This document shows, piece after piece, positions 9,001 through 12,000 of a stretch of DNA of 64,000 nucleotides; the first letter of the stretch is position 1, and the number at the start of each line of letters is the position of its first letter. The DNA comes from Escherichia coli. GTDB taxonomy: Bacteria > Pseudomonadota > Gammaproteobacteria > Enterobacterales > Enterobacteriaceae. Position numbers: made by a program. Location of the stretch: assembly GCF_050320075.1 (NCBI RefSeq), contig NZ_CP190019.1, one strand, 5' to 3'.

Positions 9001-12000
9001 TCCTTGGAGAATTCGAGTTCGTTGTGGCTGACCAAGAAAGACGAGCCTACCCCGCCATTGGTGGTTTTCACCTCGATGAAGCGCTCATGGGCGTCCTCTT
9101 CGAACGACAGGATGTCGAACCCCGCACCGTCTCCCTGGGTGTCGGACACCCAATCCAGCCGCTGAAAAAGCTCTGGGTGGCCGAGCTCGGTCAGGCGTTG
9201 CTGTTCGTAGCCAATCACCCACTGCTCCCCTGCCCGGCCCAGCTTGCGGTTGGCTTCATCGCGAGCGGCATAATCGAACTTTCGCGGTAGGCGTTGCCGT
9301 AGAGATGCCGGGGTACGCACAAGCACTTCACGGGCGGGTGGTTCTACCAAAGCCGCTCGGTAGGTTTTGTCACCCGGAAGTTTTACCTCCTCCAGGGCAT
9401 CGACAAGAGCGCCGACCGTCTGCTGATGTTCCAGAACGTAGGCGTGTACGGATTTACGCAGCAGCAGTTGGCTGTTGCCGCGTGGCTTGTAGCCGTTGAT
9501 ATAGGGCAGGCCCAGGGCATCGAGTACGGCGCTAATGTTCTGGTGCTTGAGCTCGACTGAAGACTTGCTGCGACCGTTCAGCAGTTGGCGCAGTGCCTGG
9601 TTGTGCTCGGACTTGTTGTACGGCTCCCCAGCCGCCTCGGCACGCAGCATGTCGAAATAGTCTTCGACCGTGGCCAGGACCTCTTCTTCGGACCAGTCTT
9701 CGCCGATGCGAATGATGCGAAACCCGAGCCGCGTCAGCGCCGGAACGACGGTCGCCTCGCCACCGGAGAAGCTGTCAGCAGTGAGCGGGCCCTGCTCGGG
9801 AAATTGCTTGCCGAAGGCCACACCGGCGATGGCCTTGGAATCGCAATCGGTGCCGGTCTTCGGATCACGTACCAGGAAGTCGCGGGACTTGCCGTAGCCG
9901 TGGCGCGCCAGGAATTTCGTGCGGCCCAGTTGCACGAACTCATCGATGGCAGCCTGCACGGCGGCGGGGCTTCGAAGCTGGGAGAGTTGAGACACAGGGT
10001 CCTTCCTTACTGTCATGGTGTGCCGGGAACCGCCGAGCCACGAGATTATGAGTAGCCCCTGAACAGAAACGTCACGATAATAGCCGTGAACGCCACCAGG
10101 CCCATTAAATCCCTTGCGTATTTGCAGCCCGTGCTGTCCAAACCTGTACCAGGTCCGATCAACACGCTCCAACCATTGAGGTACGAAAACACCGCCTGAC
10201 CGAACAAAAAATGCGTGATAGCCGCCGCAGCCATGACGCCGGAATCGTCAGACAGGCTGTAGCTGTTGACCATTGCCCTGTACGCCTGCATCTGAAATGG
10301 CTATTGCCCTGATGGGAGCCGGCTTTTCAGCCACCGACACCAGCGATGCCGTCAATATTCTTTACCCGATAACCATGACCGTACAAGCTAACAAGGCCTG
10401 GCAAGCCAGCGGACTTAAAAAGTCTTTTTTTCTACCATCCCACAAAAAAGTTCGTGGTGGAGAAAAGATAAGCTATGCAAGGCTTTAGGAGACGTGGTTT
10501 TTCAGGATGACGAAGAACGATTCGGCGCTAGGTGCAACATAGGTGCATCGCACGAGCGCTAGGAACGGCGAAAAAAGGCGGACGTGGCGAAATCGGTAGA
10601 CGCAGCAGACTTTAAAATTGGAGTGCCCGCGGGGAAATCCGCGGAGTAGAACCGCTCAAAGTCGGGGAACGCTAACGGGCAATACCCTAAGCCAATCCCG
10701 AGCCAAGCCCCTTCGGGGGAAGGTGTAGAGACTGGACGGGCGGCGCCTAAAGCCTTCGGGCAATGGCGAAGGGACAGTCCAGACCACGAACGTCATCAGA
10801 CGGCGGCGAAAGTCGAGGTGGTACGAAAATCTGCTTCTCTGTGAGAGTACGGGTTCGAGTCCCGTCGTCCGCACCACAAAGCCAAACATCCCTGCGATGA
10901 TCGACCTCTGGGCGTTTGGTCGTGAGCCCGCCACCCTCGCGCTACGCTTTGCGCAGGCGTCGAAGGCGATCAGGTGCGCCCATCGATTCCGTCGAGCACC
11001 ATCGCTGCGAGTTCATCGCTGGTGTGTGCACCACTATCGAGAACACGGGTTGTGCATGGAAGCCGTTCCCTTGCGGCCAAGCATCGGGCGACATTCGCTA
11101 ATCGCCACTCTCGAATCTCCGCATTTCGATTCGGGTCAGGATGCATGGTCTGGTTCGCGATCCGGTGACGCAATAGGTCCTCGTTGAGCGTCAGAAAGAT
11201 GTGCAGCAGCTGATCGTCGATCCGCCTTACCCCGTCGAGTATCTCAGTCAGATAGTCCGGGTGCACGAGCGTCATTGGGATGATGATGTCCTGCGAGTAA
11301 TTCCTTCGAATCTCCCTGACCGCCGCGATCGTAAGTCCCCTCCACAAGGGGAGATCCTGATAGTCTCCGCTCGCTGGCATGGGGACCGTTTCTTTCACCA
11401 CGAACCCGATTTCCTCGGGGTCAAAGATCAGCGATTTGGAACGCCGATCGCGCAGCCGCTTAGCGAGCGTCGTCTTTCCGGCGCCGAAAGGTCCGTTGAT
11501 CCAGATTATCATTGTCGACGGCCTCTAACCTGAAGGCTCGCAAGAGCGCTCGACGGCCTCGTGCGGAGGCACGATCGGAGTGGTTCCGAAATGCTTCTCA
11601 AGATAGGTGACGCCGAACGTCACGATGTCCTGCGCGTCGAACAGGTAGCACTGAGCAAAGCCCACGACACCTTCTCGATGGCGACCGAGCTTCACGTAAG
11701 CATTTGCTATAGTTTCAACCGCATCCGGCTTTCCTTCGATAGCAAAGCAATCGAGAATGCCGTTTGAATCGTAATCCGATGCCGTTTTCCAGGCGACTTC
11801 ACCGTCTCTTCCAAGCATCGGCATCTCATACGTCACCCACCGTTTGTTGGGGATATCGGCAACCGCCTCGGCGTAGTGCAATGCGGTAACGGAGTTTAGC
11901 GGCGCACCCAACAGCAGGGCCTTCCCGCCAAGGCGAACGAACCGCTCGACGGGCGATCCTTCCCCCAAGGCGTGACCGAGTTCGTGAGGCTCCGTCAGCG

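Follow-up and report, generated by a model that had tools for sequence, protein, structure and literature searches.

How did a complete leucine tRNA gene interrupted by a group I intron come to lie beside an aminoglycoside resistance gene on a plasmid of Escherichia coli? The question is raised by a 64,000-nucleotide (nt) stretch of the E. coli contig NZ_CP190019.1 (assembly GCF_050320075.1), hereafter the window, in which a reading made from the DNA alone (the sequence-only reading) had placed an intron-containing tRNA-Leu(UAA) gene next to tmrB and aac(3)-II. We found that positions 10578-10876 on the plus strand are a tRNA-Leu(UAA) gene, split by a 213-nt group I intron between U34 and A35. 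We conclude, with a probability of roughly 0.85, that this is an intact alphaproteobacterial gene with an intron of the Leu.3Ug class, a passenger that was captured together with aac(3)-II-tmrB from an unsampled alphaproteobacterium and subsequently spread.

Structure of the split tRNA-Leu(UAA) gene

Exon 1 (GCGGACGTGGCGAAATCGGTAGACGCAGCAGACTT, 10578-10612, +) comprises the 5' strand of the acceptor stem, the D-arm, the 5' strand of the anticodon stem and C32, U33 and U34. It is followed by the intron (TAAAATTGGAGTG…GGTGGTACG, 10613-10825, +) and by exon 2 (AAAATCTGC…GTCCGCACCA, 10826-10876, +), which comprises A35, A36, A37 and A38, the 3' strand of the anticodon stem, a long variable arm, the T-arm, the 3' strand of the acceptor stem, the discriminator A73 and an encoded CCA (…CGTCCGC-A-CCA at 10866-10876). 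The splice sites were assigned manually by the group I rule, under which the 5' exon closes with a U and the intron with a G: exon 1 ends in CUU, the intron ends in G and exon 2 begins with AAAA, and the predicted spliced junction joins the end of exon 1, …GCAGACUU (…GACUU), to the start of exon 2, AAAAUCUGC.

Run in its intron-aware mode, ARAGORN called a split tRNA at exactly 10578-10876, with the intron placed four bases too far 3', resulting in the label 'Stop(tta)'; the spliced sequence was called as a tRNA-Leu(taa) of 86 nt with a seven-pair acceptor stem and a long variable arm, and the cloverleaf has the G18G19 and T-loop elements expected of a bacterial tRNA-Leu. The acceptor, D, anticodon, variable and T stems each showed compensatory changes across the homologues. 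On the evidence of ARAGORN and the splice-site rule, the sequence-only reading had the coordinates, the length, the insertion site and the terminal G right, as well as the completeness of the type II tRNA-Leu(UAA) once the insert is removed, and the two core stretches that it cited were located at 10693-10709 and 10720-10740. With default settings, ARAGORN made no call at the split tRNA, reporting only a tRNA-Thr at 63345-63416 in the whole window.

Fold and integrity of the group I intron

The intron, which is IC3-like, was examined in a MAFFT alignment (A1) of 47 homologous tRNA-Leu(UAA) genes with 384 columns, in which U34, the terminal omega-G (10825 in the window; position G248, 47/47 sequences) and the AAAA of exon 2 were invariant, and in which the U·G pair at the splice site was present in all 46 homologues with letters there. 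RNAalifold recovered the tRNA stems together with P1, P2, P3, P4, P5, P6, P8 and two P9 hairpins from this alignment, with compensatory change in 50 of 78 pairs. The RNAalifold fold was then completed manually with the P7 pseudoknot, P6 and P9.0, a long-range helix, to give the full structure. In the window, its helices are P1 (10610-10614/10619-10623, with the U34·G wobble), P2 (10624-10633/10638-10648, with a GAAA loop), P3 (10652-10657/10738-10743), P4 (10662-10667/10696-10701), P5 (10671-10672/10691-10692, plus an extension), P6 (10702-10704/10722-10724), P6a (10708-10711/10716-10719, with a UUCG loop), P7 (10728-10734/10775-10780), P8 (10744-10747/10765-10768), P9.0 (10783-10787/10818-10822), P9a (10791-10795/10798-10802) and P9b (10804-10807/10812-10815, with a GAAA loop).

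Across the 47 homologues, 97.6% of the cells of the full P1-P9 structure, P3/P7 pseudoknot included, were standard pairs, compared with 83.6% under shuffling (0 of 500 shuffles reached the observed values) and 34-43% with slid partners, and changes on both sides were found in 53 of 85 pairs. Compensatory changes were seen in P3, P4, P6a and P8. Columns ~175-196, which cover part of P7 and the J6/7 joining segment, are invariant by construction because the motif used to find the homologues lies there; the free P7 position covaries with a column outside that motif (A-U 37, G-C 8, U-A 2). In the window copy 84 of the 85 pairs are formed, the exception being the loop-closing position of P9a.

The covariance search that had been proposed as a check gave a divided answer. 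In E-value mode on 551 nt, Rfam Intron_gpI (RF00028) matched with 36.8 bits and E = 7.9e-8 over model positions 1-253, but this is under the gathering score of 50, and at gathering thresholds Rfam reported nothing at the split tRNA locus, so that at this cutoff the outcome which the sequence-only reading had named as refuting, no group I hit, would formally have occurred. The low score is attributable to the model, whose seed is not bacterial, and not to the sequence; the Rfam group I seed contains no bacterial sequences (Williams 2020, bioRxiv 10.1101/2020.01.27.920355). A leave-one-out covariance model of the core from P3 to P7', built from 41 relatives with the window, its closest relative (L102, see below) and four others left out, gave a single strong hit when both strands of the 64 kb were searched, at 10649-10782 (+) with 127.4 bits and E = 1.3e-32, and the next-best hit was noise (E = 0.14).

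These data also dispose of the explanation that the locus resembles a cloverleaf by chance or is a pseudogene in decay. In its favour, neither default ARAGORN nor Rfam at gathering thresholds makes a call, yet this silence is a sensitivity limit of the detectors and no evidence of absence. The explanation is refuted by the family-supported pairs, intact in all but one case, by the presence of all invariant core positions, by the leave-one-out E value, by the split-tRNA call and by the changes relative to the closest relative, which are in loops or compensatory, as in P9a; we give it practically no chance of being correct. Judged from its sequence, the intron belongs to the IC3-type tRNA introns and is intact in structure.

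No plus-strand open reading frame (ORF) of at least 50 amino acids (aa) and no homing endonuclease ORF was found within the intron, indicating that it is not a homing intron; not being independently mobile, it travels with the surrounding DNA. The one ORF of that size to overlap the intron is antisense (92 aa; 10656-10934, -) and spans exon 2 as well, continuing past it. In all likelihood spurious, it is nevertheless of the type that could be annotated as a hypothetical protein over an RNA gene.

Relatives and class of the intron

A distant BLAST search against plasmids revealed a 68% match on a megaplasmid of Mycetohabitans endofungorum, where a 262-nt intron (Intron_gpI, 39 bits) occupies the corresponding position of a tRNA-Leu(UAA) gene. 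When one genome per species was scanned for a 22-nt core motif common to the window and Mycetohabitans copies (GGAAGGTGTAGAGACTNGACGG), at least 120 loci were obtained, distributed, among the matches listed, over Alpha-, Beta- and Gammaproteobacteria, Acidobacteria, Patescibacteria, Chloroflexi, Microbacterium and Bacteroidota. Among these matches, intron-aware ARAGORN called a split tRNA in 115 of 122 loci. At least 65 loci besides the window were tRNA-Leu(UAA) genes, as identified by CUU|…G|AAAA between the strands of a five-pair anticodon stem; most were from Alphaproteobacteria, and intron length ranged from 204 to 310 nt. The remainder of those listed were mostly tRNA-Arg(CCU) and tRNA(CAU) intron hosts.

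The view that split tRNA-Leu(UAA) genes are a hallmark of cyanobacteria and plastids is therefore too narrow, given so many loci of the same architecture in Alphaproteobacteria. A tRNA-Leu(UAA) intron has reportedly been described in a gamma-proteobacterium as well. Leu.3Ug (CUU/a…g/AAAA, IC3) is one of four classical classes in a survey that mapped 5292 intron-split tRNA genes in ~80,000 genomes (Williams 2020, bioRxiv 10.1101/2020.01.27.920355). The window intron is of this type, and the class is thus known, well surveyed and common in Alphaproteobacteria.

Two further loci from the scan are recorded here. One proteobacterial metagenome-assembled genome (MAG) contig, JAJZVA010000006.1, carries two split tRNA-Leu(UAA) genes ~40 kb apart. 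A Klebsiella pneumoniae MAG contig of 145 kb (CAMCBU010000004.1) carries a tRNA(CAU) gene with a 198-nt Azoarcus-type group I intron (428-700, -), for which no match was found in the plasmid collection; this contig may be mis-binned or may represent a chromosomal island.

Origin of the tRNA gene

Among the matches listed, the closest species-level relative was a MAG labelled 'Roseovarius sp.' (L102), which agrees with the window at 85 of 86 exon positions and over 93% of an intron of the same 213 nt, whereas the introns of the next closest species (Phenylobacterium, Sphingomonas, Sphingosinicella and Roseomonas) share ~66-78%. A metagenome scan with the exon 1/P1 junction as the query added ten contigs with 94-96% identity over the full gene and two contig-end fragments with 96-99%, none of them identical to the window. 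One of the contigs, L122, is from the chromosome of Paracoccus kondratievae, as its methionyl-tRNA synthetase gene, 4 kb away, is 100% identical to that of the species.

Homology between the window and these relatives was confined to ~10407-10876, namely a hairpin with a T-run, a spacer of ~140 nt and the gene itself, with the left limit at 10407-10411 (in L102 and L122-L129) and the right limit exactly at the 3' end of the tRNA, 10876. The hairpin (GACUU at 10412-10416 and AAGUC at 10420-10424) and the T-run (10425-10431) make up the remnant end of a truncated tRNA-Leu 5' half (10411-10431, +); the hairpin (10412-10424) was invariant in 7 of 7 sequences, and from its sequence the element at 10412-10431 looks like a terminator. 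The spacer (10432-10577, +), whose sequence is conserved in Paracoccus and further relatives, is presumably the site of the native promoter and the 5' leader. As a candidate structured RNA it was set aside, the RNAalifold covariation term being +0.07 for seven sequences, and we make no such claim.

In six of the relatives (L122, L123, L124, L125, L127 and L129), a truncated but well-formed tRNA-Leu 5' half lies ~165-200 nt upstream of the split gene. It consists of an acceptor strand, a D-arm with compensatory variants (GCG/CGC versus AUG/CAU), an anticodon stem strand and CUUAAAA, and it runs into the same invariant hairpin and T-run, which are all that the window keeps. This 5' half may represent a tandem copy that has decayed, the scar of a recombination event or a mini-gene for half a tRNA. 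That it is the end of a gene nested around the intact one was rejected, no 3' half or T-loop being found within 1-1.5 kb downstream. In L102, an ORF resembling OrfA of the IS3 family (5864-6199, -) lies directly 3' of the tRNA, with putA and an Lrp-type regulator upstream; this copy, too, thus adjoins mobile DNA.

When TmrB, AAC(3)-II and the 437-aa protein encoded upstream of the tRNA in the window were used in tblastn searches, no hits were obtained in 120 genome loci among the matches listed, and in ten metagenome loci the only hit was an AAC(3)-family ORF with 32% identity. The latter, on L131 (Ga0268290_102244; 217-924, +), lies ~100 nt from an environmental copy of the tRNA (108-15, -) in divergent orientation.

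Origin of the resistance genes and their link to the tRNA

The nearest TmrB homologues outside Enterobacteria were all alphaproteobacterial: contigs with 83-88% identity, Sinorhizobium meliloti with 81%, Paracoccus with 67-70%, followed by Geminicoccus, Azospirillum and Microvirga. In the Rhizobiaceae-like contigs L132-L134 (122-176 kb, free of insertion sequences [IS]), the AAC(3) gene overlaps tmrB as an operon, in a neighbourhood syntenic with that of S. meliloti, which has tmrB alone; these contigs share 86.3% DNA identity with window 10972-12419, and 87% (AAC(3)) and 88% (TmrB) protein identity. A degenerate tRNA-like 3' end (…GGTTCGATTCTTACCGCCAGCACCA) was observed at ~8665-8720 on the minus strand of L132, downstream of tmrB and in the position and orientation of the window tRNA; it was not accepted as a tRNA, being degenerate and not called by ARAGORN.

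A second group of contigs, L144-L146, connects the two blocks. Here the homology covers aac(3), tmrB and the spacer and extends without a break into exon 2 and the P9 region, with tmrB and the tRNA convergent as in the window, and it ends abruptly at window 10782, the boundary between P7 and P9. What remains, the 3' ~100 nt of the tRNA gene, is a 5'-truncated remnant, with 83% identity in TmrB and 80-81% in the neighbourhood. L144 belongs to the Rhizobiaceae, judging by its flanking permease (87% to Sinorhizobium sp. RAC02 and 86% to Ensifer/Ciceribacter). The presence of the tmrB/tRNA junction in these contigs argues that the junction is natural and was not made on an enterobacterial plasmid, and a remnant of the same tRNA beside tmrB in a Rhizobiaceae-like lineage argues that the tRNA gene was co-mobilised with aac(3)-II-tmrB. 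The 93 nt between the 3' end of the tRNA and the tmrB stop codon (10877-10969) contain no IS ends or remnants. Accordingly, the suggestion that the tRNA may identify the donor lineage stands as far as a co-mobilised block of alphaproteobacterial origin is concerned, but it does not name the donor species, the best matches being 96% for the tRNA and 86% for aac(3)-tmrB. No origin with both blocks at 95% or more was found among the species-level matches listed, the metagenome contigs and the TmrB contexts. In a curated compilation of resistance gene origins, the only aminoglycoside genes with an evidenced origin are APH(3')-VI and AAC(6')-Ih, and aac(3)-II is absent from the list (Ebmeyer et al. 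2021, PMC7782503). The criteria of that work ask for a shared gene neighbourhood, free of mobile elements, in a candidate taxon at high nucleotide identity; here the neighbourhood with the tRNA remnant reaches 80-81%, the IS-free operon 86% and the intact tRNA, in Paracoccus-type contexts, 94-96%.

The course of events that we favour would begin with the capture of the tRNA gene and the adjoining aac(3)-II-tmrB operon from an alphaproteobacterium as yet unsampled, after which IS26-associated movement would have carried them to ~1300 sequenced plasmids and ~12% of complete E. coli genomes. Several observations weigh against this reading. The two blocks do not occur intact side by side in any sampled genome; the split tRNA is missing from L132-L134, whose aac(3)-tmrB is the closest (86%); and the nearest relatives of the two blocks belong to different families, being of Paracoccus type for the tRNA and Ensifer/Sinorhizobium-like for aac(3)-tmrB. 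A mobilised aac(3)-tmrB variant without the tRNA also exists on an IncFII plasmid of Salmonella, with 96.6% nucleotide identity to window 11015-12411, an arrangement implying more than one capture or rearrangement. As to the tRNA itself, the intron misses the curated Rfam threshold, no strict sigma-70 promoter or intrinsic terminator was detected in a scan of 10150-11050, and the promoter-like TTGAAT…TATGAG of some relatives is degenerate or weak in the window copy. The near-identity of the plasmid copies reflects recent spread and not selection, and there is no sign that the tRNA matters to its current hosts. The Salmonella enterica IncFII contig (ABPBCH010000067.1, 109-4057) carries a beta-lactamase gene, aac(3), tmrB, a 121-aa ORF and an IS91/ISCR-type transposase gene.

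The second and third of these observations could be taken to mean that the tRNA and the resistance genes came from different donors and were joined on a plasmid, in which case the tRNA would say nothing about the origin of aac(3)-II. The division of nearest relatives between 10407-10876 and 10972-12419, and the absence of the tRNA from the closest natural aac(3)-tmrB contigs, fit such a mosaic; however, L144-L146 are environmental, have no IS at the junction and are homologous all the way from aac(3) into exon 2 and P9, and the intergenic segment in the window is likewise free of IS traces, so that we regard a mosaic as quite improbable. Also improbable, in our estimation, is that a small genomic island with aac(3)-tmrB as its cargo had integrated at, or was bounded by, the donor tRNA. 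The homology with all tRNA relatives ending exactly at the tRNA 3' end, the IS3-family transposase ORF directly after the tRNA in L102, the degenerate tRNA-like 3' fragment downstream of tmrB in L132 and the presence in S. meliloti of tmrB without aac(3) at the syntenic site would all be accommodated by an island, but neither an integrase gene nor a direct repeat of the tRNA 3' end was found in the window and related loci, and intergenic DNA diverges faster than tRNA genes, which alone explains the sharp limit of homology.

Genomic context, distribution and annotation

As the sequence-only reading had it, the split tRNA adjoins tmrB and an AAC(3)-II family gene. The tmrB-like gene, encoding a 180-aa AAA-family ATPase ('AAA family ATPase' in the NCBI Prokaryotic Genome Annotation Pipeline [PGAP]), is convergent with the tRNA (10970-11512, -), and the gene for the AAC(3)-II family aminoglycoside acetyltransferase follows at 11525-12409 (-), scoring 541 bits with NCBIfam AAC_3_II (cutoff 480). 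On the other side of the tRNA are a 437-aa NOV_C/DUF3883 protein gene (8859-10172, -) and an IS1182-family transposase in two overlapping ORFs of 378 and 125 aa (7373-8771, -), suggesting a frameshift or an inactivated copy. Beyond the acetyltransferase gene come an IS10-like remnant with RNA-OUT (12466-12535) and IS26 (13268-13990). The G+C content is 57-62% over ~7300-12400, as against ~44% in the adjoining IS10/IS26 sequence. Rfam also detected a group II intron (D1-D4, 119.7 bits, 14890-15039, +; D5/D6, 60.1 bits, 17112-17188, +), ~4 kb from the split tRNA in the same window; a ribozyme on a clinical plasmid, as the earlier reading had envisaged, is therefore not unique as such. The tRNA-Thr(GGU) gene called by ARAGORN at the far end of the window (+) is in a conjugative-transfer region and is below the gathering score of the Rfam tRNA model.

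The 551-nt region of the split tRNA was matched by 1367 plasmid records, with an identity of at least 99% in 1324, from hosts including Escherichia, Klebsiella, Salmonella, Acinetobacter, Enterobacter, Citrobacter, Shigella, Aeromonas and Pseudomonas. It occurred in 635 of 5426 complete E. coli genomes (~12%), at 588 places on plasmids and 82 on chromosomes. None of the RefSeq rows sampled had an annotated feature under the split tRNA, and in a full PGAP table nothing is entered between the gene of a hypothetical protein and that of the 'AAA family ATPase', in agreement with the impression that such a gene had not been annotated; it is unannotated because default ARAGORN and the Rfam gathering thresholds call nothing at the locus. 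No paper was found in which tmrB or aac(3)-II is connected with either a group I intron or a tRNA, and an intact, unannotated split tRNA in the widespread aac(3)-II/tmrB region, and its use as a marker of origin, appear to be unreported.

Predicted expression and splicing

By homology with the introns of Anabaena tRNA-Leu and Azoarcus tRNA-Ile (PMC3984707, PMC4033280), P1 would form by pairing of …ACUU|U, where exon 1 meets the intron, with GGAGU as the guide sequence, with U34·G at the splice site. An exogenous guanosine bound in P7 would attack the 5' splice site and cleave after U34; the terminal G10825 would then occupy the same site, and the freed 3'-OH of exon 1 would attack the 3' splice site. 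Exon ligation would restore the CUUAAAA anticodon loop on a GCAGA/UCUGC stem, giving a type II tRNA-Leu(UAA) with an encoded CCA, which RNase P and 3' trimming would finish. Transcription, self-splicing and any effect on the enterobacterial host are likewise putative, and aminoacylation by leucyl-tRNA synthetase and use in translation are predicted from the canonical features of the sequence.

Expression in Enterobacteria is uncertain in view of the weak or absent promoter elements, and we see nearly even odds that the gene, while intact, is silent cargo there, with neither a ribozyme nor a foreign tRNA being made in E. coli or Klebsiella. The lack of a consensus sigma-70 promoter and terminator within 10150-11050 points in this direction, as do the upstream hairpin and T-run at 10412-10431, which would block read-through from the left, and the near-identity of the copies is explained by recent spread. 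The neighbouring genes contain one UUA codon each, so that the tRNA has no evident role for them and they have no obvious need of it. On the other hand, tRNA promoters often depart from the strict consensus and the promoter scan was crude, and with all structural elements intact a transcript should be competent for splicing. The most economical view is that the split tRNA is a hitch-hiker. A bolder proposal, that E. coli and Klebsiella transcribe the split gene and the transcript splices itself there, that the remnant, spacer and tRNA constitute a horizontally moving alphaproteobacterial cassette, and that the tmrB junction pinpoints the species of origin of aac(3)-II, seems to us doubtful. 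The taxa of the proposed cassette are Paracoccus, the 'Roseovarius' MAG and Rhizobiaceae-like lineages.

Significance and comparison with known introns

In Enterobacterales, aac(3)-II ranks with the most frequent gentamicin-resistance genes. Taken as a unit, the tRNA, tmrB and aac(3)-II are a co-mobilised signature pointing towards Alphaproteobacteria, and they provide a specific sequence to seek in new genomes; Rhizobiaceae-like lineages possess the operon, and one of them the same tRNA junction. That an RNA gene in ~1300 plasmids and ~12% of complete E. coli genomes was missed by standard pipelines (default ARAGORN, the Rfam gathering thresholds and PGAP) reveals a blind spot for intron-split bacterial tRNAs. 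If expressed, the gene would represent a naturally disseminated group I ribozyme in enterobacteria outside phages, and if spliced, a ribozyme and a foreign tRNA-Leu(UAA) would be made in roughly one of every eight E. coli strains sequenced, although no annotation has recorded them. In biological terms the novelty is modest, as the intron class is classical and well surveyed; the location is unusual and epidemiologically prominent.

Compared with the cyanobacterial tRNA-Leu intron of the Anabaena type (PMC4033280; Williams 2020, bioRxiv 10.1101/2020.01.27.920355), the window intron resides in the same host gene and at the same site, CUU/…g/AAAA between U34 and A35. Both have the U·G wobble in P1, a terminal G, a P3-P7 pseudoknot core and no ORF, and their joining and pairing strands are near-identical (CAAUCCYGAGCCAAGCC and GGAAGGUGYAGAGACU). 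The window intron is the shorter one and is rich in G+C, its P6a is closed by a UUCG loop and its P2 and P9 by GAAA loops, and whereas the cyanobacterial intron occupies a native chromosomal locus, the window copy is alphaproteobacterial and is found in IS26-associated resistance regions of enterobacterial plasmids and chromosomes.

Among proteobacterial IC3 tRNA introns, those of tRNA-Ile(CAU) in Azoarcus sp. BH72 and tRNA-Arg(CCU) in Agrobacterium (Reinhold-Hurek and Shub 1992, as cited in PMC4033280 and PMC3984707) are, like that of the window, ORF-less ribozymes of ~200 nt in the anticodon loop, and our genome scan found the 22-nt core motif of the window in tRNA-Arg(CCU) and tRNA(CAU) hosts too. 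They differ in the host tRNA and in the position within the anticodon loop, and their self-splicing has been proven by experiment, whereas the window intron is known from its sequence. The closest counterparts are the natural alphaproteobacterial copies in P. kondratievae (L122), the 'Roseovarius' MAG (L102) and contigs L123-L130, in which the gene is 94-96% identical to that of the window and is preceded by the same hairpin, T-run and spacer. These copies keep the complete upstream tRNA-Leu 5'-half remnant, of which the window has only the last ~20 nt, and, unlike the window copy, they reside in chromosomal contexts (metG/arginase or putA/putR) with no aac(3) or tmrB alongside.

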